Positions 5,797 to 33,485 are shown, counted from the stretch's first letter. The stretch: 36,595 nucleotides of DNA from Verrucomicrobiota bacterium (GCA_039186805.1 JBCCZW010000001.1:1-36595); one strand, 5' to 3'. Notes: generated by a model from the sequence alone, not told the origin. Made by a program: numbers and translations.

Positions 5797-5827
5797 GTAT
5801 TCAAAATTTGGTTTAGCTACGCCTATC

Positions 5828-9805: not shown

Positions 9806-9818
9806 TATAAATTCCTTT

Positions 9819-13050: not shown

Positions 13051-13162
13051 CCGCCTTTATCATCCTCGTCGCGGCAATCAAAAGCTCCCCGCAATTCGAT
13101 AAAATCCAACTAATTCTAAAATTCTCGTTAGATAAAACCCGCTGGGTCTATTAACCATTTAG

Positions 13163-15173: not shown

Positions 15174-15195
15174 GCATTTTAACCCCTTCAAAAAC

Positions 15196-16362: not shown

Positions 16363-16468
16363 TCGAACATAGCCTTACGCGGTCGCTGAACGCGTCTGTG
16401 AAGCTCACAAGAAACCTCCCCGTATTCCCTTTCTCGATACAGTTCAACGGAGCCTTGCCCTCCCCTCA

Positions 16469-19072
16469 TTGGCGGGACCGCTCGTCCTTTTCGGAAACGC
16501 AGAACCTTTGCCAACCGCGATCCCCGAATTTATCGAACAACACTGCATCGACTGCCATGACGACGTAGAGATGAAGGGCAACCTCGACCTTGATGCCCTG
16601 CTGTTCGAGCCACTTACTCCCGAAAACAGAGCAAGCTGGATAAATGTTTTCGATGCCGCGCAGTCTGACGAAATGCCCCCGGCCAAGAAGAAACGTCCTG
16701 ACAGCGAACACCTGCAGACTTTTTTGAATTCTCTTTCGGGTAGCATCAAAGCCTCTGAACACGAACGCCTGGAAACAAATGGTCGGGCTAGCAATAGACG
16801 CTTAAACCGCTATGAATTTGAAAATTCATTACGCGACCTACTCTCTCTGCCCAATCTAGAAATCAGAGATAACTTGCCTGAAGATGGTACCGCCCATGGA
16901 TTCAACAAACTCAATAAGGCCCTAGACATTTCGCATGTGCAAATGGCCCGCTTTATGGAATCCGCCGAGCAGGCACTTAATCAGGCTGTCATACCATCGG
17001 TCAAAGCGCCGCAAACGTTCAAAGAGAAGTACTATACCTGGCAACAACCAGGCTTCATCAAAATCGCGCCCCCAACGCTTCGATTGACTTTCCCCATTGT
17101 CGGCCTGGAGCTGCAACCTGACCTTATCGGCGGTCGCGACAGAGTCGCGGAACAGTGGATCATCCCAGATTTACCGGGCGCGTCAAAACCCGAGCGGGTC
17201 GAAGACGAAGCCGTGGTGATGCTTACGAGCACTTACGAGCCATCGGAAATACAATTCAACAAATTCCGAGCGGAAGTATCAGGACGTTATATATTACGTT
17301 TCTCCGGCTATACGGTTTGGATGAACAACGATTTTTCCGAGGTATCCAAGGGCCGTCGCAATGAACCAATAGCAATCTATGCCGACTCGCCCCCACGTAT
17401 ATTACGACCTTTGGGGAAATTCGACTTTGAACCCGACGCCACCGTACACAGTCTCGATGTTTGGCTAAAAGCGGGAGAAACGATTCGCCCCGACGCCACC
17501 CGATTGGTAAGGCCCAGAGGGACCTCCAAAAACCCGCTTCAAGAAGCCGACGGCATGCCAGGCGTCGCCTTCCAATGGATGGAAGTGGAAGGCCCGATTT
17601 TCGACCAATGGCCTACCGCGGGTCACAAACTGCTTTTTGCCGATTTACCGCTCACGGAGACCATCGATGATACCGTCGTCGAAGTGATCGAAAAAGCCGA
17701 TCCCGGCGACCCTGCCAACGACGCCGGTCAAGTCTTGCCCGAGCACCTAAACCGGAAGAAGAATATCATATCAGTATCCTCTCCAACTCCCCAAAAAGAT
17801 GCCGAGGCATTGCTGCGTCGCTTTATGGAAAGGGCCTACCGCAGACCGGTACAAGAGAGCGAAGTGCAGCCAATCCTTCAATTAGTAAAAGGCGCTTTAA
17901 AGAACAACCACAGCTTCAAAGCGGCTATGATTTCAGGCTATGTGGCCACTCTTGTCTCGCCGGGTTACCTCTATATAAAGCCTAATAGGGGAGAACTTGA
18001 TAGTCACTCCCTCGCAGAACGGCTTTCATTTTTCCTCTGGAATTCACCGCCCGACGCGCAGCTGCTCAAGCTCGCCTCCTCCGGCGACTTATTGGACCAC
18101 CAGACGTTGAATCAACAAGTAGATCGTTTGCTCGACGATCCTCGCTCGCGGCGATTTAGCGATAGCTTTCTCGACTACTGGCTGGACCTGCGTCATATGA
18201 ATGCATCGACTCCAGATGAAGAATTGTACCCCGATTATCAGCTCAATGATAACTTAATAGAATTAGCGCAAACGGAAACCCAACTGTACTTCTATCATCT
18301 GATCGAGAACAATCTCTCCGCCAAGAATCTGGTCGACTCCGATTTCCTTATAATTAATGAGCGCCTAGCTAAGCACTACGATATTCCCAATGTATCAGGG
18401 GTCCATTTTCGTAAGGTCCCATTGCCCGAAAACAATGCGCGAGGAGGACTCATGACCCAGGCCAGCGTTCTAAAAGTCACTGCTAACGGAACGCTCACCT
18501 CGCCTATATTAAGAGGAGCCTGGATCATGGAACGCATGCTGGGCTATCACGCGGCGCCCCCTCCTGTCGTTGAGGTCCCTGACCCTGATATTCGCGGCGC
18601 CACGACGATCAGAGAACAACTGGCCTTACACCGATCAGATACATCCTGTAACTCCTGTCACCAAAAGATCGATCCGGTCGGGTTCGCCTTAGAGAACTTC
18701 GACGTCATGGGAGCCTGGCGAGACTTCTACCGCAACACGGCAGATGGCGAGGGTCCGAAAGCCAAGGGAATCGGACATAACGGCAAACCCTTCCTCTTCC
18801 GCAAGGGCTTGCCGGTGGACGCTACAGGGAAATTATATAGAGGAGATTCCTTCTCAGATGTTCGCGACTTAAAAAAGATGCTCACCGAGAGGGACACGCA
18901 ACTCGCTGAGAATATCACCGAGCAACTATTGACCTACGCCACCGGCGCTCCCGTCCATTTCTCCGATCGCCAGAGCATAGCGAAAATATTACAGCGAAGC
19001 CGCGCGTCTGACTACGGACTCCGCGACCTCATCAAACATATCGTTAGTAGCGACTTATTCCTCAATAGATAA
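16469..19072 (+). CDS. DUF1592/DUF1588/DUF1585-family protein with two CxxCH heme-c motifs (cassette A); no recognisable signal peptide
   Basis: 867 aa. CIDCH at 16544-16558 and CNSCH at 18647-18661. Family blocks [72 protein letters not shown] and [16 protein letters not shown]. The only in-frame start after the upstream stop is TTG at 16469. Confidence 0.8.
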
Positions 19073-19089
19073 AGACAGAGATTCTATAT

Positions 19090-20403
19090 ATGAAAAATTT
19101 TAACCTCAGATCAAAGAAGTCTCTATCGCGAAGAACCGTCCTAAAAGGACTCGGGGTCAGTATGGCGCTACCTCTCCTCGACGCCATGACTCCAGCGTTT
19201 GCCAAAGGGAAAGACGTAACCAAGAAGCCGCGACGCATGCTCGCTATCTGCAACAATTTGGGAGTGCTTCCACAGCATTTCTTCCCAGAAAATGCAGGGC
19301 CTGACTATAAGCTATCTCCTTACCTACAACAGCTATCCGCCCATAAAAACGACTTCACCGTGTTTAGCGGCGTCTCGCACCTCGGTGTAGATGGGGGGCA
19401 CCCAGCGGACAACTGTTTTTTGACAGCGGCTCCTCACCCTGGTTCTGGAAGCTTTAGGAATACCATATCCTTAGATCAGTTCATGGCTGAGAACATAGGA
19501 CACCACACGCGTATTCCTTCCTTAACTCTGGGCGTCAATGTCTACCAAGGTATTCGCGGCCTATCCTGGACCGCAGGCGGCGTTTTGATTCCCAGCGAGG
19601 AAAAAGCATCCCGAGTCTTCAGCCAGATGTTTCTAGAAGGCTCAGCCAAGGAAAAGCAAAACCAGGTACGCAAAATCGAGTTGGGACAAAGTATCCTCGA
19701 TACGGTTACAGGAATGGCCAAGAGCCTAGAAAGCGACTTGGGGGCGAGCGACAAGGAAAGCCTCGACCAGTACTTTACCAGCGTGCGCGACCTCGAAAAA
19801 CGCATGGCCGCGTCCAAAGAATGGGAATACAAAGAAAAGCCAAAGGTCTCCACGCCACCGCTGGTCGACTTCGAAGACACGCGGCTCTACATGGACAAGA
19901 CCAGACTCATGTACCAACTCTCAAGCCTGGCGATCCAGACGGATTCTACACGCGTGATCAGCCTGATGTTGGATAGTCTGAACTCCCCCGCCATCGAATT
20001 CGATGGTCAAGCGATCAGCGATGGCTACCACAGCCTCTCCCATCACGGCAAATCGGAAGCCAAGCTGGAGCAGCTTAAGCGGATTGATCTTTGTCATATG
20101 AAATTGCTGAATGGGCTCCTGTCCGACTTGAAAGATTTCAAAGAAGGCGGGCAGCCTTTGCTGGATAGCTCCATGGTTCTGTATGGTTCTAATCTGGGAG
20201 ATGCCCAAACCCACAAGAATACGAATCTACCAATAATCTTTGCGGGCGGCGGGTTCGAGCACGGCCAACACCTTGTCTTCGATACCGAACGCAACTACCC
20301 GCTCCCCAACCTCTACGTATCCATGCTCGAAAGAATGGGTATCGAAACCGACAAATTCGCCTCCTCCACCGGAACCATGCGAGGCCTCGAAATGGCCGGA
20401 TAA
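19090..20403 (+). CDS. DUF1552-family protein with a twin-arginine leader (cassette A)
   Basis: 437 aa. Leader [26 protein letters not shown] and the block [13 protein letters not shown]. It starts 17 nt after the upstream CxxCH gene. Confidence 0.8.
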
Positions 20404-20477
20404 CGCCTGCCCAATGCACCCATTATCGTCTATCGATATGCAAATTATAGAATCCCTAAGATAACAAAGATTCATCT

Positions 20478-21809
20478 ATGAATTCGATAACAAGGACCTC
20501 ACTTACCCGCAGGTTTCTCCTTATAGGGAGCATACTTGCGCTCTCGATTAACGTCGCATACTCTTCGGGCAGCGGCAATAGCCAGAAATCATCTGAAGCC
20601 TGGCGACTAAAAGCGAACAAGCGAATTGATGAAATCCGCAAAAGCAACCTGTCGATCAAAGTCACCGACAAAGTGGGGAAGCCAGTCAAAGACGCGAAAG
20701 TACACGTAAAGCTGGATCGTCATAAGTTTCTCTGGGGAGCAGTAATCAATGAAGTGTGGCCTGTATCTCCTCACTTGGATACATACAAGGAAACCTTCCT
20801 ACGCTATTTCAACGCTTCCGGGTTCCGCCTCGCCCTAAAGCCGAAATGGGTCGGCCACGCCAACGAACAAAGGGCTGAGCAAATGTGGCCATGGTTCATG
20901 GAAAACGATATCTACATGCGAGGGCACCTCCTCGTTTGGGACGATCCCAAGTGGTGGCCCGGAGACATGAGAGAGGTATATAATAACAATTCCCTTCCCG
21001 ACAAAGTGAAAGGGGAGCAGCTATTGCGGATGGCTGAACGACACATCCACTACGCCTTGCCGAAGTGGGACGTCGAATGCTGGGACGTGATGAACGAGCC
21101 GCTGTCCAATTTCGCCATTCACAACCTCGTCGAAGGCCACAGCTTCACCCACTGGTTCAAACTCGCTGATGAAGTTCGCAAAAAGCATGGTCGGGAGGAC
21201 GTCAAGCTCTACATCAATGAGTTCCAAGTTCTGTCCGCGATACTGAAGCATGCCCAAAATCGACCTGCCAGATACAGAGCGATAATCGATCAGATGCTTT
21301 CCGAAGGAGCGCCGATCGAAGGCATTGGCTTCCAAGCCCGCATCCACTCCGGCTACCTGTCGCCAGAAACTGTATACGATCGCCTGCAAAACTTTGAGCG
21401 CTACGACCTCCCGCTGCATATTACCGAATTCGAGGTTCGCAACAAACCCGCCAAAACCTATACCGACGAAGAAAAGGTGCAAATCGTCAACGAGATGATG
21501 ACCATCTACTTCAGTCACCCGTCGGTCGAAGGCATGTGGCACTGGACCTTTTCGGACCTGCCGAACGGCAGAGAGCCTTTCGCTCTTTTCCAATACGATG
21601 GCACCCCCTTCCCTTGCGGAGTGGAATGGATGCGCACGATGGACGAAGAATTTAATACGGACCTGATCGCGACCACGAAATCCAACGGCAAAACGACTGC
21701 TCGCGGCTTCAAGGGCGAATACACGATCACTGCTTCCTACGGTTCAAAAACCAAGAGCATTTCAGCCACCCTAGATGAAGACGCCCAATTGACTATCGCA
21801 TTCGATTAA
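20478..21809 (+). CDS. GH10-like glycoside hydrolase (xylanase fold), secreted
   Basis: Signal-like N-terminus. The full ordered set of GH10 hallmark blocks is present: MRGHLLVW, WDVMNEP (acid/base Glu codon 21096-21098), LYINEF, GIGFQARIH, LHITEFEV (nucleophile Glu codon 21426-21428). Confidence 0.8.
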   Translation: MNSITRTSLTRRFLLIGSILALSINVAYSSGSGNSQKSSEAWRLKANKRIDEIRKSNLSIKVTDKVGKPVKDAKVHVKLDRHKFLWGAVINEVWPVSPHLDTYKETFLRYFNASGFRLALKPKWVGHANEQRAEQMWPWFMENDIYMRGHLLVWDDPKWWPGDMREVYNNNSLPDKVKGEQLLRMAERHIHYALPKWDVECWDVMNEPLSNFAIHNLVEGHSFTHWFKLADEVRKKHGREDVKLYINEFQVLSAILKHAQNRPARYRAIIDQMLSEGAPIEGIGFQARIHSGYLSPETVYDRLQNFERYDLPLHITEFEVRNKPAKTYTDEEKVQIVNEMMTIYFSHPSVEGMWHWTFSDLPNGREPFALFQYDGTPFPCGVEWMRTMDEEFNTDLIATTKSNGKTTARGFKGEYTITASYGSKTKSISATLDEDAQLTIAFD

Positions 21810-21857
21810 GATCGAGAATAAATGCTCCTACTCCCACCAGTTCAATGCTACCGTTGC

Positions 21858-22019
21858 CTCTCCCTCTTCGCCAGGTCTACTGGCTCGGCCCTCGATACGG
21901 ATTCCCTGCGGACTGAGCTTCCAAGCCTCTACGTATCCATACAGCCAAGACCCGTCGCAGAAGTCGACAAATTCGCAATCCCGACAGGAACCACGCGCAG
22001 CCTAGAAACGGCCAACTGA
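21858..22019 (+). pseudogene. relic of the 3' end of a DUF1552 gene (about the last 50 codons only)
   Basis: The translation LSLFARSTGSALDTDSLRTELPSLYVSIQPRPVAEVDKFAIPTGTTRSLETAN* aligns with the cassette A C-terminus [56 protein letters not shown], including the position of the stop. Shared nucleotide strings include CCTCTACGTATCCAT and GACAAATTCGC. The N-terminal ~85% of the gene is missing. Confidence 0.7.
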
Positions 22020-22045
22020 AAACCAAGCAACTTCAATTTCCAAAC

Positions 22046-22095
22046 TGTAGACGCGGTCGTTGACCGCGTATTCTAATCGACGATCGCGTCTACAA
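22046..22095. repeat. REP-like palindromic intergenic element, copy 2 (nested inverted repeats)
   Basis: TGTAGACGCG (22046-22055) is the exact reverse complement of CGCGTCTACA (22085-22094). There is an inner hairpin ACGCGGTC-GTT-GACCGCGT (22051-22069). It shares the 14-mer GATCGCGTCTACAA with 7751-7764. Confidence 0.5.
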
Positions 22096-22189
22096 GCAAA
22101 TTTCCAATTTAACTCGTCAGAGGTTCTCCAAGCGGAACCCAGCATCAGCATACGACCCTCTTTTGTCTGCCATAGGGTCGAATCTCAGT

Positions 22190-24439
22190 ATGAGAATATT
22201 AACTACATCTTTCATCCTCATTGCACCGTGGCTCTTCGGCCTCCCCACTTTGGCCGCTTCCCTGGCTCACCTCGACCCCTACGGCGGGCACAAGTCAAAG
22301 GGCTTCGACCTCGAAAATCCCGGCTTTTTCCGCACGCGCTTCGAAGACGGACAATGGTGGCTCGTCACTCCTGAAAACAATGCCTTCCTTTCCTTTGGCC
22401 TCAATCACTTCCACTCCAACCTTTGGGTAAAGGACTACAATAAGGAGCACTGGGAAAAGGAATTCGGCGGTAATGCCTGGTCGCCCAAATGGAGGGAGGC
22501 CTTCTATAAGCACGCTCGCGAGGTCGTCACTGCCTCGGGAGCCAACACCATGGCCTACCACAATGAAGATGGAATCCTTCTAGAACGTGATCCGCTGCTT
22601 CCCTACATAAGGCAGTACATCCCCGTAAAAATTTCCCTCCACCTCAACGCCAAGGCTAAAGACTACGTGGATGTCTTTTCTCCGAATTTCGAAGAAATCT
22701 GCGCCAAGGCCGCTCAAGAGCAAGTCGCCCCCTACGTCGACGATCCTATGATCATCGGCTTCGCCATGGCCGACATTCCCGTCCACACGGAAGGCTGGGC
22801 CAAGCCGATGCAAGGACGCGGTATCCCCACTTGGGCGATGGCTCTCAGAAACCTACCCGCGTCTTCCGCTGGCAAACAGAAGTACATCGAGGTTATGAAA
22901 TCTCGGTATTCAAAAATCAAAGACTTCAATCGGACCTACAGTACGAAGTTCTCCAGCTGGACGGATCTCGCCAAAGCCCAAAACTGGCGAGAACGCACCG
23001 ATTTCGAAAACGAAAAGGAGATCGCCGACAACAACGCCTTCAACAAGCTCGCCATGGCGAAGTACTACGAAGTCGCCTCCAGAGCATTCCGAGCCGTCAA
23101 CCCCAACCACCTCTTCCTAGGCGACAAGCTCAATGGCAACATGCGCCAAATCGAGGAACTGGAACTCACCATCGACGTCGCCAAAGACTACGTGGACGCG
23201 ATCCTTTTCCAATTTTACGGCAAAGACGGTTATCAAGATCATATCCAAAATCGCATCGCCACTATTTCCAAGCTTCCAATCATCAACGGCGACGGAGGAT
23301 TCGGAGCCTTTGGCGATCCCAAAATGCCCGTCCCGCAGCATCCACAGGCCAAGGATCAAGCTGAAAGAGCGCAATGGATGTATGAATACGCCGCGCGCGC
23401 GTTCAAGCATCCTAACTTCGTCGGCTGGCACATCTGCGGCGTTATCGACTCTTGGCAAACCGCTCCGCATGGCACTCAAAAGCCCGGCGTTATGAATCCG
23501 CTCGGCAAGTTCCATACCGAGGTGACCGGCATGCTCCAATCCATCGGCTCCAACCTCTACAGCTTCCGAGGCGTCGCAACTCCCACCGTTTCAGACAACG
23601 CTCCCCCTCACGGTTTCCGCAGCCTATTCGACGGCGGCACTCTCAACGGCTGGAAGCCTATGCCTCGCCTCCCCGTTCCCAGATACCCAGGAGCTCCCTT
23701 CAACATCGACCCCAACAGTCCCAGGATGCAGAAAGCTCGCCAGAACACAGGCAAGTGGACGGTCGTCGACGGCGCCATCGTCGGCGAACAAGATCCTCCG
23801 GCGAGCGGCGTCGGCGCCTATCTCGTGTCTGAAGAAACCTTCGGCGACTTCGAACTTACGATCGATATGAAGCCCGACTGGAGAACCGACACCGGCTTCC
23901 TGATCCGCACTCTCCCCGGTGGCAGTCCTGGTCTGCAAATCCTCTGCGACTTCCGTCCCCAAGGGGGGATCGGCGGTTTCTACGGCAATGGCCTCGCGGG
24001 CATTCACGGCATGTCGTTCGCGATCGATGCGGAAGTCGACGAGAACAGCGTACCGATTCGCGTGATATCTGCCGATCCAAACAAGGGTCGACCCGAACTC
24101 AGAGAAGAAACGCGTTCGCTTCTCAAGTACGCAGCGAGCGTAGAGGATTTCCTAAAAGTATGGAAGGTTGGCGAATTCAATACCCTCAAAGTACGCTGCG
24201 AAGGACGTATCCCCACCGTCACTACGTGGGTCAATGGGTTAAAAGTCGCCGTAATCGATTTGGCCGAGATTGAGTGGGAAAACTACGACGCGGAAGCCAT
24301 CGCTGAAATGACGAATGGCAGAGGACATATCTCCCTGGAAGTCCACAATAATGGACGCAACGACACGCAAGGCCAAGAACGCTGGTGGCCCGGCGCTCAA
24401 GTCCGTTGGAAAAACATCTACATCCGCGAACTCGACTAG
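22190..24439 (+). CDS. P3: unassigned glycosidase-like domain fused to a C-terminal DUF1080 (3-keto-disaccharide hydrolase-like, jelly-roll) domain
   Basis: ATG at 22190 gives the signal peptide MRILTTSFILIAPWLFGLPTLAAS; the ORF track begins at TTG 22163. N-terminal blocks are WWLVTPENNAFLSFGLNH, DDPMIIGFAMADIP, NHLFLGDK, VDAILFQFY, LPIINGDGG and GWHICG. The C-terminal part from ~23609 has DUF1080 hallmarks FRSLFDGGTLNGWKPM, GKWTVVDGAIVG, FGDFELTIDMK and GHISLEVHNNG...VRWKNIYIREL. Confidence 0.8.
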   Translation: MRILTTSFILIAPWLFGLPTLAASLAHLDPYGGHKSKGFDLENPGFFRTRFEDGQWWLVTPENNAFLSFGLNHFHSNLWVKDYNKEHWEKEFGGNAWSPKWREAFYKHAREVVTASGANTMAYHNEDGILLERDPLLPYIRQYIPVKISLHLNAKAKDYVDVFSPNFEEICAKAAQEQVAPYVDDPMIIGFAMADIPVHTEGWAKPMQGRGIPTWAMALRNLPASSAGKQKYIEVMKSRYSKIKDFNRTYSTKFSSWTDLAKAQNWRERTDFENEKEIADNNAFNKLAMAKYYEVASRAFRAVNPNHLFLGDKLNGNMRQIEELELTIDVAKDYVDAILFQFYGKDGYQDHIQNRIATISKLPIINGDGGFGAFGDPKMPVPQHPQAKDQAERAQWMYEYAARAFKHPNFVGWHICGVIDSWQTAPHGTQKPGVMNPLGKFHTEVTGMLQSIGSNLYSFRGVATPTVSDNAPPHGFRSLFDGGTLNGWKPMPRLPVPRYPGAPFNIDPNSPRMQKARQNTGKWTVVDGAIVGEQDPPASGVGAYLVSEETFGDFELTIDMKPDWRTDTGFLIRTLPGGSPGLQILCDFRPQGGIGGFYGNGLAGIHGMSFAIDAEVDENSVPIRVISADPNKGRPELREETRSLLKYAASVEDFLKVWKVGEFNTLKVRCEGRIPTVTTWVNGLKVAVIDLAEIEWENYDAEAIAEMTNGRGHISLEVHNNGRNDTQGQERWWPGAQVRWKNIYIRELD

Positions 24440-24535
24440 CGCAATGGAAACGTTCCCGAAGAATCGAAGAAATGCAGTAGCGAGGACCGCTTCGGTCCCT
24501 CATCTAATTTCGTATCCGCTTATCAGATACATCAA

Positions 24536-26053
24536 ATGAAAGATTACTTTAACCCGCTTTTCAGTATCGCAAAGCTAAGCTTGGCGACACTACTTGGCTC
24601 AGCCGCCATTAATGCTCAATCCGGAGAGCTCGATCAGTATGGCGGCTTCATGGATATTAAGGGCGAGAAAACCGGTTTCTTCCACACCGAAAAGATTGAC
24701 GGTCGCTGGTGGTTGGTGACTCCCGAAGGCAATGCCTTCTGGGGAATCGGCATGAGTCACCCCGTAACGGGCTGGACCGAGGGCGCAGTCACTTTCGTAT
24801 ACAACGGCGATCAAGAGGCCTGGTTTAAGGATACCGTAAAGAGGATGAAGGACCTGGGCTACAACTGCGTGTGGAGCGGCCCCTACTGTCCCGAACGAGC
24901 CCGCTCAGGCTTTATAGACAAGCGATTGGCGGAAAAAGTATTCAAGGATGCCGAGATCCCGTATGGCTACCCCGTGGCTCTCATCAAGCACGCGGTCGAA
25001 CTCGAACCGGGAGAAAAACGACCTGATGTATTCAGTAATGAATACAAGAAGTTCGTGCAAGGCGAAGTCGAACAGCATGTGATTCCCAATAAGGATGATC
25101 CCTGGATAATCGGATATTACTACGGCTTCGGTTCTTTCGACCGCGACTGGTTGTGGATCAATGACCATCTGGAGAAAAAAGGCAGCCCCGGCCGCGCGCG
25201 GCTGATGTCCGTACTCGAAGATCGCTATAATGGAAACATCAGCAAATTGAACCAGGTCTACGGAACTGCCTTCGAATCCTTCCGAGCCCTGAAAAACGAA
25301 GGTATGATCTCCTATCCTAATTGGGTCACCTTGAGCAAGGCGGGGCGCGCCAAGATTCCCAATACGCCCGAAGGGCAACGTATCTTTGAGGACGCTGAAG
25401 CCTTGCTAGGCGAAATCGTAGAAAAAGTCCATGCCTTGGCCTTCACTGAAATTCGCAAGCACGACACCAATCACATGATTCTTGGCTGCTATGTGAAAGA
25501 GGCAACCTATACGGAGAAGATCTGGCGTAGGATCGATCCCTACATCGACGTTTTAGCGCCGCAACATGTGAGCGAAGTCTTTCCAATTGGTCCCATCGTG
25601 GAAGCCCTCGATAAGCCCGCTATCATTAGCGACCAACCCTACGGCAACGTCTACAATAATCACAATCTTGTCCAGCGCGGCGCCCATGGCCCGGTCCCCG
25701 ACCACGTCGATCGGCACTTGCTCTACGACCTTTTAACTGAACGCATATCCGTAGATCCCGACGTGACCGGCGCCAATATGTGCGCTTGCCTATTCGACCA
25801 ATCCCATTGGGAGAAAGCCTACGAAAGGGGTCAGCCCGGCTTTTGGACCGTCGACGGCGAACCCAGACCCCACCTCATAAGGACCGTTCAACGCTCAAAC
25901 TCGCTCCTTTTTGAAAGAGTCAAAAAAAGTCACGATGAAGAGACGGTCCAAAACCTGGATGAGAAATTCCATCATATCCTGAGCCTCTACCGCGAAGTCA
26001 TGGACCATCGAAAGGAGTTCCTAAGAAGAGTACCCGCCATCGTCTATCCATGA
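24536..26053 (+). CDS. P4: divergent secreted member of the unassigned glycosidase-like family
   Basis: 505 aa with a signal-like N-terminus. Blocks RWWLVTPEGNAFWGIGMSH, DLGYNCVW, DDPWIIGYYYGFGSFD, NHMILGCY, IDVLAPQHV, KPAIISDQP and GANMCAC. Confidence 0.75.
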   Translation: MKDYFNPLFSIAKLSLATLLGSAAINAQSGELDQYGGFMDIKGEKTGFFHTEKIDGRWWLVTPEGNAFWGIGMSHPVTGWTEGAVTFVYNGDQEAWFKDTVKRMKDLGYNCVWSGPYCPERARSGFIDKRLAEKVFKDAEIPYGYPVALIKHAVELEPGEKRPDVFSNEYKKFVQGEVEQHVIPNKDDPWIIGYYYGFGSFDRDWLWINDHLEKKGSPGRARLMSVLEDRYNGNISKLNQVYGTAFESFRALKNEGMISYPNWVTLSKAGRAKIPNTPEGQRIFEDAEALLGEIVEKVHALAFTEIRKHDTNHMILGCYVKEATYTEKIWRRIDPYIDVLAPQHVSEVFPIGPIVEALDKPAIISDQPYGNVYNNHNLVQRGAHGPVPDHVDRHLLYDLLTERISVDPDVTGANMCACLFDQSHWEKAYERGQPGFWTVDGEPRPHLIRTVQRSNSLLFERVKKSHDEETVQNLDEKFHHILSLYREVMDHRKEFLRRVPAIVYP

Positions 26054-26361
26054 ATACGATTAAGCCCGGTGAACGCCCCCTTTCAATTGAGGGTGCTCAG
26101 GGGCTCTCCAGAGCTTCCCTTTTTGGACAATTCCAATCTCTCAACCCGGCGCATCAGACAGAAGGCTTTGTGAGAGCAATCTTACCATCGTTCCCACCTA
26201 GTACCCATCATCAAGAAATGCGGCCTTAGTAAAAAGAACCAACTATGTCCAAAGATCCCTCCAGATTAGCATGATCATGTCATGGCACAGTTTCGCCCCT
26301 TGCAATATTGCATACAGACATCCGGTCCCGGCCCGTAGATCGCCGGAGATAGATTCCAAAC

Positions 26362-28113
26362 ATGTTTAAGCCCTTTTTCCACCGATTACTCTTCCTCGCA
26401 TTGCTAGGCAGCGCAGCCGCAATCGCCTCGCAGGGTCCAAATGTCATCCTCATCCTGACCGATGATCAAGGCTACGGCGATATTCGTTCACACGGTAACG
26501 ATAAAATAGATACGCCTCATCTCGATCGTCTCGCCGACGACGGGGCCCGCTTCGAGAATTTCTTCGTCTCCCCCGTCTGCGCCCCTACGCGCGCTAGCGT
26601 CCTCACCGGTCGCGAGCACATTCGTACCGGGACCGTAAACGTATCCAACAACTACGAGATCATGAGATCCGAAGAGGTGACCGTCGCTGAACTCTTTAAA
26701 GCAAACGGCTACGCTACCTCCCTCTTCGGCAAATGGCACAACGGCGAACACTACCCTTACAATCCAAACGGCCAAGGATTTGACGAATTCATCGGCTTCT
26801 GCGCCGGCCACGTCGGCAACTACTTCGATGCCGTCCTCGAGCACAATGCCGGCACGATTCAGACCGAGGGTTTCATTACCGACGCGCTCACCGATAAAGC
26901 GCTCGATTGGATCGAAGACAAAAAGGACGAGCCCTTCTTCTGCTACATACCCTACAACGCGCCTCACACGCCCTACCAAGTTCCCGACTCTTACTACGAT
27001 AAATACAAAGCCCGCGGACTCGACGTCAAAACCGCCACTCTCTACGGCATGGTCGAAAACATCGACGACAACATCGGCCGCCTTGTGAAGCGACTCGAAG
27101 AACTCGAACTCTCCGAAAACACCATCATCCTCTTCCTGACCGACAACGGCCCGCAAACCCGCGACCGCTACAACGCGGGAATGAAAGGCTGGAAAACTCG
27201 CGTCGATGAAGGCGGCGTTCGCGTCCCCCTCTTCGTTAAATGGCCCGGCCAAATCAAGCCGCGCACCATCATCGACGGCCTCGCCGCGCACATCGACCTA
27301 ATGCCTACTCTCGCCGATCTTTGCGGTATTGAAATTCCAGATACGCTCAAACTCGATGGACTCAGCCTCAAAGACTCCCTCCTCAAAGGAGAAACCGCCC
27401 CCGACGATCGCATGATCTTCGCTCACCGCTTTTTCGGCGGAAAACTACAGCGGCGCAGCGGAACCGCTCGCAGCAAACGCTACCGCTACGTCTACACCCA
27501 CCAAGAGGAAACCCTCTTCGACCTCATCAACGATCCAGGACAGAAGAAAGACATCAGCAAAGCGAATCCCGAGCAATTCGAACGCCACCAAGTCGCCTAT
27601 CGCCAATGGTTCGAGGACGTATCCGATAACTGGGAAATCGTATCCCTCATCCCTTGCGGCTACCCCGAGTTCCCCATTACTCACCTTCATGCCGTCCAAT
27701 CGAAACTCAGCGGGGCCATCAAATTCCACGGCCGAGGCTTCCACCACGACTGGATCGTCAATTGGGTCGACCCCAAGGACGACATCAAATGGGACATCGA
27801 CGTGGTCGAGTCCGGGCGCTTCCGCGTCGCTATAAGATATACTTGCCCCGAAAAAGATATCGGCTCGCAGGTTCGTATCTCCGTCGGAGGAAAGTCACTA
27901 CAAGCGACTGTCGACAAAGCCTTCGATCCCGACCTCTTTCCCAACCTCGACCGAGCCCCTCGCTCTGGCGAAATCGAAAAGCCTTGGGCGACTCTAGAGC
28001 TAGGCTACCTGAACCTAAAAAAAGGCGTAGACACCTTCACGCTGTCTGCCGACCGCATGCCTGGCTCCCAAATCATGGATGTCCGCGAAGTCATCTTAGA
28101 AAGGATCGAATGA
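26362..28113 (+). CDS. S1-family (Cys-type, formylglycine-dependent) sulfatase with a C-terminal ~140-aa extension
   Basis: Signal peptide, LILTDDQGYGD metal-site block, and FGly motif CAPTRAS (Cys codon 26578-26580). The region after aa ~440 lies outside the sulfatase core. Confidence 0.9.
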   Translation: MFKPFFHRLLFLALLGSAAAIASQGPNVILILTDDQGYGDIRSHGNDKIDTPHLDRLADDGARFENFFVSPVCAPTRASVLTGREHIRTGTVNVSNNYEIMRSEEVTVAELFKANGYATSLFGKWHNGEHYPYNPNGQGFDEFIGFCAGHVGNYFDAVLEHNAGTIQTEGFITDALTDKALDWIEDKKDEPFFCYIPYNAPHTPYQVPDSYYDKYKARGLDVKTATLYGMVENIDDNIGRLVKRLEELELSENTIILFLTDNGPQTRDRYNAGMKGWKTRVDEGGVRVPLFVKWPGQIKPRTIIDGLAAHIDLMPTLADLCGIEIPDTLKLDGLSLKDSLLKGETAPDDRMIFAHRFFGGKLQRRSGTARSKRYRYVYTHQEETLFDLINDPGQKKDISKANPEQFERHQVAYRQWFEDVSDNWEIVSLIPCGYPEFPITHLHAVQSKLSGAIKFHGRGFHHDWIVNWVDPKDDIKWDIDVVESGRFRVAIRYTCPEKDIGSQVRISVGGKSLQATVDKAFDPDLFPNLDRAPRSGEIEKPWATLELGYLNLKKGVDTFTLSADRMPGSQIMDVREVILERIE

Positions 28114-28217
28114 GCGCCGATTTCCATAATAGGACGCAAGGCCCTCGGTCCGTAGAACTTCGCCAAGCCCCGCGGAAGCGATGTTCCGCTTCAACTCCCT
28201 CGTTCGCCTAATTTATT

Positions 28218-30590
28218 ATGCGCCCCATTCGAAATACAGGATTCGGAATGCTGCTTTTGTCGGCTGCCCTGCTGACCTCAGCAGAGGTCGATATCACCGC
28301 GCCGCCTGAGCATTTGAACGCCTTTCTGGAACGGCATTGCCTAGATTGCCACGACGACACCGAAAGCAAAGCCGATCTCAACCTCTGGGATTTGGAATTC
28401 AATCTGAAAGACCCGAATACCTTCGCCACCTGGCAGCGCGTCTACGAGCGTATCAGCAATGGCGAAATGCCGCCCGCCAAAAAACGTCGTCCCGGGGCCG
28501 ACGAACTGGCCGAGCTTCTCCCGGCCCTCAAGAAACCCCTATTGACCGCGGACCGGAAAGACGCTCAAGAAAACGGCCGCGTGCGCAGCCGTCGCCTGAC
28601 CCGGCGAGAATACGAACACACCCTGCATGACCTCCTCGGCATCGATCTACCGCTGCAGGAACTCTTGCCCGAAGATCCCGCCTCCCATGGCTTCGAAACC
28701 GTCTCCGCCGGCCAACAACTATCCTACCATTTACTGGCGCGATATCTGGACCTTGCCGACCTTGCCTTAGCCGAAGCATTCGATCGCGCTCTCAATGGGG
28801 ACGCCAAATACGTCGAAAGCTTTTCGCCCAATCAGTTGTCGGAGGGAATTGGGAGACGCAACTACCGAGGCCCCGAACCTCGAAAAGGCGAGAGTATTTC
28901 CTGGCCCATTTATAGAATGCAATTCTACGGACGGATGCGCGGTTTCCGAGCGCCGGAAGACGGCTGGTACCGCATCACGCTTCGCGATGCGCGAGCAGTC
29001 AACCCAGCCACAGGGGGAACCGTATGGGGAACCTTGCAAACGGGCGCCGGGGTCTCTGCCGAACCGATACTCTACGATGCGGGTATCGTGGAAGCGATCA
29101 AGACTCCGCGAGACCTGCACTACAAAGCATGGATTCGGGAAGGACATAGATTGTTATTGAAGCCGAATGATCGGACCCTCCGCAGAGCTCCCAATCAGAA
29201 CCGGCGGCCCGACACGGCTCAATACGATGAGCCAAATGAAAAGAACGGTTTTTCAGGAATTGCCCATCGCGGTATCCGCGTCGAACGCATCTACCCCAAC
29301 GGCGACCGCGATGCCGCACGGAAAAACCTGTTCGGAGATACAAGGCTCAAGACTGCCAGAAAAAACCCGACCGCAGCGCTCGACCAACTCATGACGCGTT
29401 TCGCCCTCAGGGCCTTCCGGCGACCCTCCACCGAAGCGCAACTGGCGCCCTACAAGAAGATCGCTCAGGCCGCCCTCGCCGAAGGCGATTCCTTCGAGGA
29501 AGCGCTGCGCGCCGGCTACCGGGCCATCCTCTGCTCCCCGCGATTCCTCACTTTCATCGAAAAACCCGGTCAACTGGATAACTACGCTCTGGCCTCCCGG
29601 CTCAGCTACGCCTTATGGGTGAGCATGCCGGACGAGACGCTTATGCAAGCGGCGAACGAAGGCAGCCTGCGCGATCCCGAGACTCTAGACGCTCAAATCA
29701 ACCGCATGCTATCCAACCCGAAATTCGAGCGCTTCATCAACAGCTACAGCGACCAATGGCTCAATATGAAGGAGATCGGCTTCACCACCCCCGACCGCCG
29801 CCAATTCCCCACCTTCGACCCAGTGGTTCAGGATTCCATGCTCCAAGAGACCCGCGCCTTCCTTCGCGAGATGATCCAGTCGGACCACGGCGCCGCCAAT
29901 ATCGTCGATTCCGATTTCGCCTTCTGGAACGAGCGCCTTGCGCGACACTACGAAGCGAACGCGAAATTCAAGCCCGGCCAAGGCCTGCAAAAGGTAGCGC
30001 TCAAAAAGAAAAGCGTTCACGGCGGACTGTTGACGCAGGGAGCTATTCTAAAGGTAACCGCCGACGGCTCAGCCACTTCTCCCATCGTGCGAGGCGTTTT
30101 CGTCAATGAGCGCATCTTGGGTAAACACTTAGCGCCACCGCCGCCAGATATCCCAGCAATTGAACCCGACATCCGTGGCGCTGTTTCCATTCGCGACCAG
30201 TTGGAAAAGCACCGCGCCAACGAGTCTTGCTACTCCTGCCACAAGACGATCGACCCGCCCGGACTGGCCCTCGAGAACTTCGATCCCGTCGGCATGTGGC
30301 GCACTCACTACGGTCGCGGTCGCGGCGCAGCCGTCGACCCAACCGGCGCCACGCCCGAAGGCGACCGCTTCGCCGACATTCTCGCCTTGAAGAAAATCTA
30401 CGCGCAGCGCGACGACCAACTGGCTCGCGCCTTCACCGAGCACTTTCTCACCTACGCGACCGGCGCTCCCATACGCTTCAGCGATCACGCGGAAGTCGAG
30501 AAGATCGTCGCCGCTTCAATCAGCTCCGACTACGGTTTGCAGACCCTGATGAAGGCCTCCCTGGCCAGCTCTATTTTCCAACAAAAGTAA
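28218..30590 (+). CDS. DUF1592/DUF1588/DUF1585-family protein with two CxxCH motifs (cassette B), with a signal peptide
   Basis: 790 aa. N-terminal MRPIRNTGFGMLLLSAALLTSAEV. CLDCH at 28338-28352 and CYSCH at 30228-30242. The blocks are collinear with cassette A (RRLTRREYEHTLHDLL, FALRAFRRPST, LASRLSYALWVSMPD, DSDFAFWNERLARHY, TSPIVRGVFVNERILG). Confidence 0.85.
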   Translation: MRPIRNTGFGMLLLSAALLTSAEVDITAPPEHLNAFLERHCLDCHDDTESKADLNLWDLEFNLKDPNTFATWQRVYERISNGEMPPAKKRRPGADELAELLPALKKPLLTADRKDAQENGRVRSRRLTRREYEHTLHDLLGIDLPLQELLPEDPASHGFETVSAGQQLSYHLLARYLDLADLALAEAFDRALNGDAKYVESFSPNQLSEGIGRRNYRGPEPRKGESISWPIYRMQFYGRMRGFRAPEDGWYRITLRDARAVNPATGGTVWGTLQTGAGVSAEPILYDAGIVEAIKTPRDLHYKAWIREGHRLLLKPNDRTLRRAPNQNRRPDTAQYDEPNEKNGFSGIAHRGIRVERIYPNGDRDAARKNLFGDTRLKTARKNPTAALDQLMTRFALRAFRRPSTEAQLAPYKKIAQAALAEGDSFEEALRAGYRAILCSPRFLTFIEKPGQLDNYALASRLSYALWVSMPDETLMQAANEGSLRDPETLDAQINRMLSNPKFERFINSYSDQWLNMKEIGFTTPDRRQFPTFDPVVQDSMLQETRAFLREMIQSDHGAANIVDSDFAFWNERLARHYEANAKFKPGQGLQKVALKKKSVHGGLLTQGAILKVTADGSATSPIVRGVFVNERILGKHLAPPPPDIPAIEPDIRGAVSIRDQLEKHRANESCYSCHKTIDPPGLALENFDPVGMWRTHYGRGRGAAVDPTGATPEGDRFADILALKKIYAQRDDQLARAFTEHFLTYATGAPIRFSDHAEVEKIVAASISSDYGLQTLMKASLASSIFQQK

Positions 30591-30613
30591 TCAACCACAG
30601 GACACCCAATTCC

Positions 30614-31885
30614 ATGAAAAACATAAATCTCAATTTGGGCGCTAAAATTTCCCGGAGAACCATGCTCCGCGCCGGCGGCATTTCATTGGCCCTTCCCTTA
30701 CTCGATGCCATGACTCCCGCATTCGCGAAGATGCAAAAGGCGACGCATGCCAAACGCTTCGTCGGCGTCAACCTAACCCTCGGTCTTCACTATCCAAACC
30801 TCGTCCCCGAGACGGCTGGAAAGAATTACCAACCCTCGCGCTACCTCAAATCGCTGCAAGACATCCGGAACGACTTCACGGTGGTTTCCGGAACGTCCCA
30901 TCCCGGCGTCGGCGGAGGGCACTCCGCCGAAGGCAGCATCTTTTCCGCCTGCCCGAACCAAGGCGGCTCGGCGGCGCGCAATACCATCTCCTTGGACCAG
31001 CTCATGGCCAAAAGCCTCGGTCACGAGACGCGCTTCCCCTCCCTGGTACTCAACACCTCCGGTCAAACCAGCCCCTCCTACACCGAGAACGGGGCGATGA
31101 TCCCGGCTGAGAACAAGGCCATGCGGCTCTTCACGAAGCTCTTTGTCGATGACTCGCCCGCTGAACAAGAACGGCAAGCCGAGCTGATCCGCCGCGGACG
31201 CAGCGTCATGGACACCATCGGCGCAGACGCCAAAAGCTTGCAGAGCGAACTGGGAGCCGGCGACCGCGACAAGCTAGACGCTTGGTTCACCAGCGTTCGC
31301 GAATTGGAGGGCCACCTGGTCGCCAACGAGCAATGGACACGACGCCCTAAGCCAAAGGTGTCGCTCCAACCGCCGGTAAACGTGCCGCGAAACAACGAGG
31401 TCGTCGTCGAGAAGATCTTTCTCGATATCGTGCACATGGCCTTGGCCACTGACTCTACTCGCTTCGTCAGCCTCCACACCTCGGGCAACGGCGTATCCGG
31501 CATCCAGGGTGTCGATGACGGCTACCACAACCTCAGTCACCACGGCCTCGACGAGGGAAAACTCCGCCAACTTGGCCTCGTCGAGCAAGGCATGATCGAT
31601 GTTTGGGGAGGCTTCTTGCGAAAGCTGAAGCAGGATCAATTGCTGGACGAGACCATGGTCCTGATGACCTCCAACCTCGGCAACGCCTCTGCGCACTCCA
31701 ACAACAACCTGCCCGTACTCTTTGCCGGAGGCGGCTTCCGACACGGACAACACCTCGCTTTCGACCAAGAGAGCAACTATCCTCTGCCCAACCTTTACCT
31801 AAGCGCGATACGTCGACTGGGACTGGACGTCGACCGTTTCGCCACCTCTTCCACCGAAATGCGCGGCTTGGAAGTCAACGCGTAA
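30614..31885 (+). CDS. DUF1552-family protein with a twin-arginine leader (cassette B)
   Basis: ATG at 30614 gives [38 protein letters not shown]. The ORF-track start at 30227 overlaps the upstream gene in another frame and encodes an Arg-rich non-protein-like extension. DGYHNLSHHGLDE block. The start is 23 nt after the upstream stop. Confidence 0.85.
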   Translation: MKNINLNLGAKISRRTMLRAGGISLALPLLDAMTPAFAKMQKATHAKRFVGVNLTLGLHYPNLVPETAGKNYQPSRYLKSLQDIRNDFTVVSGTSHPGVGGGHSAEGSIFSACPNQGGSAARNTISLDQLMAKSLGHETRFPSLVLNTSGQTSPSYTENGAMIPAENKAMRLFTKLFVDDSPAEQERQAELIRRGRSVMDTIGADAKSLQSELGAGDRDKLDAWFTSVRELEGHLVANEQWTRRPKPKVSLQPPVNVPRNNEVVVEKIFLDIVHMALATDSTRFVSLHTSGNGVSGIQGVDDGYHNLSHHGLDEGKLRQLGLVEQGMIDVWGGFLRKLKQDQLLDETMVLMTSNLGNASAHSNNNLPVLFAGGGFRHGQHLAFDQESNYPLPNLYLSAIRRLGLDVDRFATSSTEMRGLEVNA

Positions 31886-31925: not shown

Positions 31926-33485
31926 ATGAAAACACTTCTAAACGCCCTTCCAAAATTTTTGGGCCGGGACAGTCTACCCTCCGTAGCTTCATGCGAAGGA
32001 CGGGCCGACCCGGCAAGCGAGGTGGGTCATCGCCGCGCCCTACAGCCGTTTGCGACCAAGGCCCTTCTCGCGTTGGCCATCGCCATATCCACAAATTCCA
32101 GCGTGCTATCGAACGAAACGATCGGCCACAAGGATTTCGTTCACGTAGAAAAGCAGGGCGGCATATGGACCATGGTGAAGGGCGACGGCGAAGCCTTCGT
32201 CCCGCTCGGCATGAATCACGTTGGGCCCATGTCGCGCTTCGCTCCTTACAACCGGGAGCACTGGGCCAAGGAAATCGGAGGAGGCATCCTCAAAAACGGT
32301 CGAGTCGATTTCAAATCCGAGGGCGCCAAAACCTGGCTGGAGATCATCGCCAAGGACCACAAGGACTACGGCTTCAATACCCTAGCCTTTCACCATCCCC
32401 ACACCTTGCCTACGGAATACTGCAACGAGCTGGAGCTGTACTACTTCGCCAAGCTTCGCATGAGCCACGTCCACGCTCGTCGCGCTAAACGGATGTCGGC
32501 GACCAAAATGTTCCCCGACGTATTCGATTCCGCGTGGGTCCAGCGGCTCGACCATTTCGTCGAAAACTTCACCGCCAGGCATCGAGACGGAAAATACCTG
32601 CTCGGCTACAGTTACGACGACCTCCCAGCTTATACAATCCACAATCTAGAGAGACCCATCAGGAAATTCGAGCATCACCCATGGATCGTAGACGTCCTTT
32701 CAAAACCGGGAAAAACCAAGGGCAAAAGCGAATGGATCGAAGTCCTACAAAAGCAATATTCATCCGCAGCGAAAGCCGGTGACATGTATGGCCTCGCAAT
32801 CAAAAGCTGGGACGATTTCTACGACATCAAGAGCTACGGGCTTCCTAAAGACGAAGAGCAAGGCTTCGCCGATCAAGCGCTCATGAACGCGAAGATTATT
32901 CGGGCGTATCACAAGGCTCATCACGACGCTATACGCAAGTACGATCCCCATCATCTCATTTTAGGCGACAAAATTCAAAACGCCCGATCCCAACCGGACT
33001 GGGTATGGAATATCGTCAAGGAGTACGTAGACGTTATCCTAATCCAGGACTACGACTTCTTCACTCCTCTTCATGCAAAGAAACTCCGCCACATCTACGA
33101 GGTGACCGGAAAGCCTATCATAAACGGAGATCACGCCTACGGCGCCATTCGTCCCAACATGGAAAACGTCAAGGGAGTCGTCGTTCCTACGATGAAAGAC
33201 AAAGGGGAACAGTATGCCGTCTACCTCAAAGGCATCATGAGCCTGCCCTTCATGCTTGGCTGGCAAACCTGCGGTTACCTAGAGACATGGACCGGTACCA
33301 GCGACGCTACCGGGAAATCCCAAACCGGCTACTTCGATCCCATGGGACGTCCCATCCTCGAGGCCCTCGAGCCCGCCAGAGAAGCCAACGCCTCAGCGCT
33401 CGCCTGGCGGCGGCAAGCAGGAAAAGAAAAGATAAGCTACTCGACCATGAAACGCGCTCCCTTGCGGACGCAGAAAAAGCGATAA
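31926..33485 (+). CDS. P5: most divergent member of the unassigned glycosidase-like family
   Basis: Blocks GGIWTMVKGDGEAFVPLGMNH, DYGFNTLAFH, LLGYSYDDLP, HHLILGDK, VDVILIQDY, GKPIINGDHA and GWQTCGY. The start is uncertain: ATG 31926 gives a non-signal 32-aa leader, while in-frame GTG 32022 gives a signal-like (M)GHRRALQPFATKALLALAIAIS. Confidence 0.75.
   Translation: MKTLLNALPKFLGRDSLPSVASCEGRADPASEVGHRRALQPFATKALLALAIAISTNSSVLSNETIGHKDFVHVEKQGGIWTMVKGDGEAFVPLGMNHVGPMSRFAPYNREHWAKEIGGGILKNGRVDFKSEGAKTWLEIIAKDHKDYGFNTLAFHHPHTLPTEYCNELELYYFAKLRMSHVHARRAKRMSATKMFPDVFDSAWVQRLDHFVENFTARHRDGKYLLGYSYDDLPAYTIHNLERPIRKFEHHPWIVDVLSKPGKTKGKSEWIEVLQKQYSSAAKAGDMYGLAIKSWDDFYDIKSYGLPKDEEQGFADQALMNAKIIRAYHKAHHDAIRKYDPHHLILGDKIQNARSQPDWVWNIVKEYVDVILIQDYDFFTPLHAKKLRHIYEVTGKPIINGDHAYGAIRPNMENVKGVVVPTMKDKGEQYAVYLKGIMSLPFMLGWQTCGYLETWTGTSDATGKSQTGYFDPMGRPILEALEPAREANASALAWRRQAGKEKISYSTMKRAPLRTQKKR

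Follow-up and report, generated by a model that had tools for sequence, protein, structure and literature searches.

The window analysed here is a single contig of 36,595 nucleotides (36.6 kb) from a Verrucomicrobiota bacterium (GCA_039186805.1 JBCCZW010000001.1:1-36595). It carries two copies, designated cassettes A and B, of a two-gene unit that encodes a large protein with PSCyt and PSD domains and two CxxCH sites, followed by a small protein of the HXXSHH/DUF1552 family with a twin-arginine leader. The locus reveals no new system; it is a further instance of the known, uncharacterised PSCyt3 + DUF1552 pair. What is new is the probable remote homology that links DUF1552 with DUF1501 and the sulfatases, the domain dissection of the large protein, the recurrence of the surrounding gene cluster across phyla and the substitution of the pair by a sister module. 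PSCyt/PSD proteins, and the DUF1552 or DUF1501 proteins that accompany them, occur in very large numbers yet are uncharacterised.

Two paralogous cassettes in a co-oriented cluster

Both cassettes are present with exactly the open reading frame (ORF) positions given in the preliminary description of this DNA, and with the gaps it reported between the large- and small-subunit genes, 17 nt in cassette A (A_L and A_S) and 23 nt in cassette B (B_L and B_S). The motifs quoted there were likewise all recovered, namely CIDCH and CNSCH, CLDCH and CYSCH, H-x-LSHH, and an SRR leader followed by an identical 14-residue stretch. The large proteins of the two cassettes share 33% identity and the small proteins 46%. 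Judging by these values the cassettes are old paralogues, and a recent cassette duplication is ruled out.

The coupling of the two genes is not confined to the window. In orthologous loci of the cassette A type (A-type loci) with enough flanking sequence, the large gene lies immediately upstream of the DUF1552 gene in 49 of 62, and nearby in 8 more. Two comparison loci (L087 and L089; such numbers denote loci from other genomes or contigs) each have three small and two large DUF1592/DUF1552 genes within 10 kb, and multi-cassette clustering is therefore not peculiar to this window.

A decayed third copy had also been described. A genuine DUF1552 remnant does exist, though not a cassette: only the last ~35–43 codons and the stop of a small-subunit gene are left, and no large-subunit remnant was found, which rules out a complete third cassette. 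The translation (about 21888–22019) ends in LPSLYVSIQPRPVAEVDKFAIPTGTTRSLETAN followed by a stop equivalent to that of A_S. It matches the last 32 residues of A_S (405–436) at 59% identity (tblastn E 1e-5 to 1e-7) and the nucleotide sequence matches 20301–20397 at 70% identity (blastn), while the local alignment score is 83 compared with 27 +/- 4 for shuffled sequences.

From 11962 to the end of the window all main genes are on the plus strand, with intergenic gaps of -11 to 353 nt. The features are as follows.

9155–11882, minus strand, histidine kinase (F5/8 type C sensor domain) and GerE-type response regulator (Pfam)
11962–16362, plus strand, P1 (glycoside hydrolase family 50 (GH50)-like, no signal), extracytoplasmic function (ECF) sigma factor, FecR anti-sigma factor and P2 (GH50-like, twin-arginine translocation (Tat) signal)
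16469–19072, plus strand, cassette A large subunit A_L (867 amino acids, TTG start)
19090–20403, plus strand, cassette A small subunit A_S (437 amino acids)
20478–21809, plus strand, GH10-like glycoside hydrolase between cassette A and the DUF1552 relic (PF00331, E 4e-26)
21888–22019, plus strand, 3'-end relic of a DUF1552 gene (tblastn, blastn, shuffle test)
22163–26053, plus strand, P3 (GH50-like with a C-terminal 3-keto-disaccharide-hydrolase/DUF1080 domain) and P4 (GH50-like)
26362–28113, plus strand, sulfatase 1 (sulfatase motif LTDDQG...CAPTRAS in the translation)
28218–30590, plus strand, cassette B large subunit B_L (790 amino acids)
30614–31885, plus strand, cassette B small subunit B_S (423 amino acids)
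31926–33485, plus strand, P5 (GH50-like; PDB beta-agarase 4bq4, E 1e-13)
33533–35119, plus strand, sulfatase 2 (73–75% identity to the sulfatase at the same position in L085, L089 and L093)
35295–36595, plus strand, PVC-type haem-binding CxxCH protein (DUF7133/TIGR02604), cut by the end of the window

The context genes first described, the P family, the GH10-like gene and two sulfatases, are thus all present, and the P family can be named as GH50-like. PDB beta-agarases match its members at E 1e-9 to 3e-15, and P2 orthologues, which carry the NCBI name 'agarase', are 70–84% identical across genomes of the Planctomycetes–Verrucomicrobia–Chlamydiae (PVC) group. The GH10-like gene product shares 83% identity with the GH10 portion of a protein from Pelagicoccus mobilis, and sulfatase 1 is 74% identical to a Thalassoglobus orthologue that is itself a PF00884 match. 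Because the beta-agarase matches of the P family are combined with a GH10-like enzyme and two sulfatases, the predicted substrate is a sulfated galactan such as agar or porphyran. The cluster differs from a polysaccharide utilisation locus of the Bacteroidota type, the SusC/SusD-like pair of which was not found: neither TonB-dependent receptor nor SusD families occur among the window's 20 main ORFs, which were the ORFs scanned.

Architecture of the two subunits

The small subunits are clear members of the HXXSHH/DUF1552 family (PF07586), with E-values of 9e-78 for A_S and 8e-68 for B_S (262 and 230 bits, against a cut-off of 30). The HxxSHH motif reads HSLSHH at residue 314 of A_S and HNLSHH at residue 305 of B_S, and the twin-arginine leaders, SRRT(V/M)L, run into the identical stretch mentioned above. 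Orthologues of A_S are 61–69% identical across phyla, and those of B_S in L081 and L085–L090 are 68–86% identical. Neither subunit has an NCBIfam model. Sequence searches of the PDB with both subunits, as single sequences and as profiles, gave nothing significant, and nor did a PDB search with a DUF1501 protein.

Profile–profile alignment (hhalign) places DUF1552 beside DUF1501, the small subunit of the sister module, with a probability of 97.3–97.5% (E about 1e-11, 313–366 columns). DUF1501 in turn aligns with the sulfatase family at 95%, while DUF1552 aligns with it directly at 72% over 305 columns. DUF1552 is therefore probably a remote homologue of both DUF1501 and the sulfatases, the link to the latter being largely transitive via DUF1501. 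In the alignment of DUF1552 with the sulfatases, 'NN' of the first beta-strand falls on the 'DD' metal ligands, 'LTG' is shared, and 'GSNLG' falls on 'SDNG'. The S96-H97 region, with an inserted GGH104, falls on the C-x-P-x-R formylglycine motif, where the aligned position reads V-S-H-L...GGH.

Across 53 DUF1552 representatives of 33–49% identity, eight residues never vary (R14, H104, D129, R141, D204, R288, H318 and H375), and a further seven (R15, H97, D285, H314, H319, H391 and H394) are near-invariant. Given the profile alignment together with this invariant and near-invariant His set, the small subunit looks like a sulfatase-fold protein in which the hydrolytic nucleophile has been replaced by a His-rich, probably metal, site. 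No C/S-x-P-x-R formylglycine motif was found in the small subunits and no Pfam Sulfatase match was obtained at E <= 0.01, so that, as far as its sequence tells, the small subunit is not a sulfatase by that family's criteria. With the formylglycine-dependent sulfatases (PF00884) it has in common a probable fold, a full-length profile alignment and the LTG motif; it differs from them in that the DD metal ligands are NN or variable, in the His-rich set that stands instead, in Tat export and in the cytochrome-like product of the partner gene.

The Tat leader box LALPxLExM after the two arginines (window positions 19126–19206 and 30650–30730) is near-invariant in the 53 representatives, an uncommon degree of conservation for a signal peptide. 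Between A_S and B_S no other stretch is conserved as well (78%, as compared with 37–56% elsewhere). The reason may be a dedicated chaperone for export or docking to the partner protein.

The large subunits A_L and B_L each match, in this order, the Pfam families PSCyt1, PSD3, PSD5, PSD4 (DUF1592), PSCyt3 (DUF1588) and PSD2, all above gathering score. The E-values for PSD4 are 3e-39 and 1e-42; PSCyt1 is marginal in A_L (24.7 bits against a cut-off of 22). The CxxCH sites are CIDCH at 26 and CNSCH at 727 in A_L, and CLDCH at 41 and CYSCH at 671 in B_L. In 43 homologues with 55–81% identity both CxxCH sites (including C41, C44 and H45), the M84-P85-P86 motif and H665 are invariant. Residues 33–92 at the N-terminus of B_L align end to end with the 85-residue Kuenenia cytochrome c-552 (PDB 5mxz), CxxCH on CxxCH and MP on MP, with a weak E-value (0.13). 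This alignment agrees with the Pfam matches to PSCyt1 and Cytochrome_CBB3, and both elements of the class-I c-type cytochrome signature, CxxCH and a conserved distal Met, are present.

The AlphaFold2 model of B_L (pLDDT, the predicted local distance difference test score, 78; pTM, the predicted template modelling score, 0.82) has three parts: a small domain of helices at the N-terminus, a beta-sandwich (about residues 199–358) and a C-terminal half that is entirely helical. Confidence is low for the 60 residues surrounding the second CxxCH, which is to be expected where a pocket is modelled in the absence of its cofactor. In a Foldseek search with the whole B_L model only the beta-sandwich found matches (probability ~1, E ~1e-2), namely carbohydrate-binding modules (CBMs) of families CBM29 and CBM22, a hyaluronan-binding module, and TNF/C1q jelly rolls. 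A variable beta-sandwich lies between PSD3 and PSD5 in A_L also. By domain, identity between A_L and B_L is lowest in the beta-sandwich (17%), 32–57% in the others and highest in the PSCyt3 segment (57%), while among B-type orthologues all domains are about equally conserved. Because it combines the lowest conservation between the paralogues with even conservation among the B-type orthologues, the beta-sandwich is consistent with a ligand-binding domain that is specific to each paralogue and sits on a constant core. In some members of the family a CBM2 or DUF1080 domain is fused to the protein.

The homology of the small subunit bears on two further explanations of the pair. In the first, the small subunit would simply hydrolyse phosphate or sulfate esters, with the large protein as a binding or scaffold partner whose CxxCH sites are structural. 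This agrees with the homology to the alkaline-phosphatase superfamily, in which no redox-coupled member is known, and with the recurrence of PhoD, PF04185 phosphoesterases and sulfatases around the pairs. Both CxxCH sites and the Met-Pro-Pro motif are invariant, however, and the segment of the second CxxCH is the most conserved of the large protein, which is hard to explain if its role is purely structural; the plain-hydrolase explanation is considered improbable. The second goes further, and proposes that PSCyt + DUF1552 and PSCyt + DUF1501 form a new redox-coupled enzyme class on the sulfatase scaffold, in which a His-ligated metal wired to c-type haems would oxidatively remove or transform sulfate or phosphate esters, for example to keto-sugars. 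If so, the keto-sugars would feed the nearby DUF1080/3-keto-glycoside and GFO/IDH/MocA enzymes, and the dozens of modules found beside hydrolytic sulfatases in PVC bacteria would be explained. This bolder version is put forward as a speculation, and its chances are slightly poorer again than those of a plain hydrolase.

The PSCyt/PSD domain families are attributed to an analysis of Rhodopirellula baltica by Studholme et al. in 2004 (cited in PMC5615132 and PMC2754498). He et al. (2017; PMC5615132) reported that Group III PSCyt3 genes usually adjoin DUF1552 genes, often near sulfatases, with up to about 17 DUF1552 genes per genome, and suggested a carbohydrate-related role. The cassettes have the same architecture, gene order, Tat-leader partner and nearby sulfatases as Group III, and nothing essential differs; the window adds two paralogous cassettes and a relic within one co-oriented GH50-like/sulfatase cluster that is conserved across phyla. 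The sister module, PSCyt1/PSCyt2/PSD1 (DUF1549/DUF1553) with DUF1501, was described by Kamneva et al. (2012; PMC3542564), who proposed electron transport. It follows the same logic, a large secreted CxxCH protein and then a Tat-leader protein, and the small subunits are homologous (hhalign 97.5%). Its large subunit has PSD1/PSCyt2 helical domains, whereas those of the cassettes are PSD3/5/4/PSCyt3/PSD2, and its small-subunit motifs are WDxH and GRDHH in contrast to the HxLSHHG and H375 of DUF1552.

The nearest characterised protein is Cbp2D of Cellvibrio japonicus, in which the X183 c-type cytochrome domain can reduce lytic polysaccharide monooxygenases (LPMOs) (Branch et al. 2021; PMC8981238). 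Like the large subunit, Cbp2D is a secreted multidomain protein with two single-CxxCH domains, DUF1587 (PSD3) and a carbohydrate-binding module, and belongs to polysaccharide breakdown. By contrast, PSD4, PSD5, PSCyt3, PSD2 and a DUF1552 partner are not reported for Cbp2D, and no LPMO gene was seen in the window. A Cellvibrio protein with CBM2 and DUF1592 has been detected in a lignocellulose-degrading community.

Recurrence of the cluster and spread of the pair

The whole cluster recurs at 50–86% identity in metagenome-assembled genomes (MAGs) of Verrucomicrobiota and in the planctomycete Thalassoglobus neptunius (L085). The order in the latter is ECF, FecR (52%), P2 (74%), P4 (52%), sulfatase 1 (74%), a P5-like gene (32%), B_L (61%), B_S (70%), one small gene, sulfatase 2 (75%) and a PVC-type haem-binding CxxCH protein. 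In one Verrucomicrobiota MAG the corresponding genes are a P-like gene, B_L (76%), B_S (86%), a sulfatase, the kinase (46%), the regulator (64%) and P2 (73%); in an Opitutaceae MAG they are two sulfatases, A_L (59%), A_S (69%), ECF, FecR (52%), P4 (75%), P2 (79%) and a second P4 (58%). Three further metagenomic contigs show the same B-type pattern. The histidine kinase and response regulator are conserved companions of the cluster, their orthologues (46–64% identity) adjoining it in L081 and L094. The PVC-type haem protein that follows sulfatase 2 in the window holds the same position in T. neptunius and in L093.

In an independent approach the clusters around four P2 orthologues were inspected for modules. 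The sister module, PSCyt2/PSD1 with DUF1501, was found in three of the four (L091, L093 and L094), where it takes the place of DUF1592/DUF1552 amid related 'agarase', sulfatase and ECF–FecR genes. The fourth, in the isolate Pelagicoccus mobilis (L092, 3802–12595), consists of the A-part of the cluster and carries neither module, with identities of 75% for ECF, 55% for FecR, 76% for P1, 83% for GH10, 74% for P2 and 70% for P3; in this species a single protein of 995 residues joins the GH10 domain to an N-terminal part resembling P3. In these comparisons the pair is evidently a self-contained, mobile two-gene module which, in this cluster family, appears to be frequent, swappable with its sister module and dispensable.

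The presence of ECF and FecR genes raises the question of a periplasmic ligand sensor, in which the pair would not be an enzyme but would feed the adjacent ECF sigma/FecR system in the manner of the TonB-dependent transducers of Bacteroidota polysaccharide loci. ECF and FecR adjoin the pairs in the window, in the Opitutaceae loci L082–84, in L085 and in L090, and in L091 and L093 they stand beside the sister module. In the small subunit, moreover, the sulfatase scaffold has a remodelled active site, as pseudo-enzymes often do. However, homologues of ECF/FecR were found in only 2 of 80 A-type loci, and these genes travel with P2 even where the module is absent. At least 10 invariant His, Asp and Arg residues across the fold, combined with Tat export, speak for a cofactor-bearing catalyst. 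A sensor is considered very improbable.

The DUF1552 family is large, with at least 10,947 representatives at 50% identity (E <= 1e-3). The pairs had been described as PVC-enriched, and they are indeed concentrated in the PVC phyla, but they are not confined to them: A_S orthologues at 61–69% identity occur in Verrucomicrobiota and Planctomycetota and also in records labelled Acidobacteriota, Abditibacteriaceae and Binatia. The neighbourhoods of A-type orthologues were sampled in the same 80 loci, from which 767 neighbouring ORFs were clustered. The pair itself is the only conserved unit; 373 of the 767 ORFs are singletons, and a conserved third partner gene is ruled out, as no family generally accompanies the pair. 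Sulfatase genes are the only frequent neighbours (23 genes in 17 of the 80 loci, within 10 kb), while P-family genes were found in a single locus. Among the 202 immediate neighbours the commonest are Sulfatase (7), DUF1080/3-keto-disaccharide hydrolase (6), ThuA (6), PF04185 phosphoesterase (6) and TonB-dependent receptors (4).

A tentative role in sulfated-glycan processing

The preferred reading is that the cassettes are modular two-subunit periplasmic accessory enzymes for sulfated-glycan processing, a proposal to which slightly less than even confidence is attached. The analysis shows directly which domains are present, their remote homologies, the conserved motifs, the coupling of the genes and the synteny of the clusters; complex formation, haem binding, metal binding, substrate and chemistry are inferred. 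The small subunit would be exported folded via the Tat pathway, and would have a scaffold of the sulfatase/alkaline-phosphatase superfamily in which the invariant His/Asp set, probably a transition-metal centre, has taken the place of the formylglycine nucleophile and of the acidic metal ligands. The large subunit would be exported via the Sec pathway and would carry haem at its two invariant CxxCH sites, the first within a class-I cytochrome c domain at the N-terminus, where a Met-Pro-Pro ligand motif is conserved, and the second in the most conserved helical segment. The CBM-like beta-sandwich, the most divergent part between the paralogues, probably selects the ligand. The two modules of the window stand in the same orientation as the GH50-like and sulfatase genes and close to them, and probably act on sulfated galactan fragments in the periplasm. 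A redox theme is suggested by the invariance of the CxxCH and Met motifs, by further haem proteins that recur in these clusters, by the DUF1080, GFO/IDH/MocA and ThuA genes that recur nearby and by a GMC oxidoreductase upstream. Support also comes from the sulfatases around the A-type pairs, all 23 of which occur inside 6 kb (654 kb of sequence), compared with 0 in about 238 kb further out, a clustering that is suggestive although uncalibrated against the sulfatase background of these genomes.

Several findings weigh against this proposal. Most A-type orthologues stand in unrelated, non-glycan neighbourhoods, and the 25 families met most often among the 202 immediate neighbours include no glycoside hydrolase family. 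Equally conserved B-type pairs occur in unrelated contexts in Prosthecobacter and another MAG, beside PhoD, kinases and GFO/IDH/MocA, and the P. mobilis cluster has no module. The AlphaFold2 model of A_S, built from 46 too-similar sequences, is poor (pLDDT 52), and its Foldseek matches are not significant (E >= 0.27), even if the weak top matches are nearly all of the alkaline-phosphatase superfamily (sulfatases, LtaS-type proteins, phosphonate monoester hydrolase, cofactor-independent phosphoglycerate mutase and YejM). For the helical half of the large protein, the PDB gave no match to sequence or profile searches or to Foldseek with the whole B_L model as query. B_L carries an ordinary Sec signal peptide, but no canonical start codon would give A_L one, so that cassette A may be impaired; a signal peptide would result from a start at an in-frame ATT (16424), and an in-frame stop lies about 33 codons upstream of A_L (16372–16468). 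Finally, literature searches found no experimental datum for any member of the family.

Upstream of A_L, an in-frame stretch of 25 residues followed by EP looks Sec-like and could be started only by the ATT at 16424, and the homologues all have leaders of 25–35 residues.

Some of these findings are also what would be expected of a generic periplasmic redox or housekeeping module, serving in electron shuttling, metal handling or the stress response, the position of which in the cluster merely reflects a genome dense in sulfatase and carbohydrate-active enzyme genes together with gene shuffling. The A_S orthologues remain 61–69% identical across phyla while their neighbourhoods are mixed (373 of 767 ORFs singletons, P-family genes in 1 of 80 loci), and the B-type pairs of Prosthecobacter and the other MAG, like the P. 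mobilis cluster, fit the same explanation. In addition, the density of PSCyt genes is inversely correlated with glycoside hydrolase coding density (He et al., PMC5615132), and the R. baltica DUF1552 gene RB9955 is listed as regulated in the stress conditions of a published study. On the other side, gene order around cassette B is conserved across phyla and three of the four independently chosen P2 clusters have the sister module. The many paralogues per genome and the paralogue-specific CBM-like domain fit substrate diversification better than one housekeeping task, and family members fused to CBM2 or DUF1080 are likewise difficult to accommodate. A generic module is, on balance, regarded as rather unlikely.

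The suggestion in the preliminary description that the context indicated a glycan role rather than core respiration is thus upheld in part. The recurrence of cassette B and its neighbours across phyla and the sister module in three of four P2 clusters support it; the idea itself had already been published, and most A-type loci lie elsewhere. Its remark that the function of the pairs is not established was borne out. The papers of 2012 and 2017 (PMC3542564 and PMC5615132) both state that nothing is known of function, and literature searches found no functional study of these pairs since 2017.

The value of the locus is practical, in that two modules lie in a compact, co-oriented cluster predicted to break down sulfated glycans, with a defined class of candidate substrates. 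Since the cluster recurs in cultivated relatives, module function is now testable: isolate genomes contain counterparts both with the module (T. neptunius) and without it (P. mobilis), a natural plus/minus comparison.

Some minor features of the window were also recorded. P1 (11962–13050) and P2 (15196–16362) are GH50-like paralogues with 74% identity. Because P2 has a Tat leader and P1 is signal-free, they suggest one cytoplasmic (P1) and one exported (P2) copy. An Rfam search of the window gave no match. The sole intergenic terminator-like hairpin on the plus strand, at 26100–26117 after P4, may split the cluster into A-part and B-part transcription units; the promoter and terminator scan as a whole was no better than that of shuffled sequence. 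Upstream of the cluster, at 4156–6340 on the minus strand, a GMC-family FAD oxidoreductase is encoded together with a Gluconate_2-dh3 small subunit, a pair that resembles periplasmic sugar dehydrogenases and would need an electron acceptor. The GC skew of the plus strand is negative throughout the window (-0.02 to -0.26 in 2-kb windows), both at the minus-strand genes (about 2.6–11.9 kb) and at the plus-strand genes, and the long co-oriented cluster is therefore on the C-rich strand.

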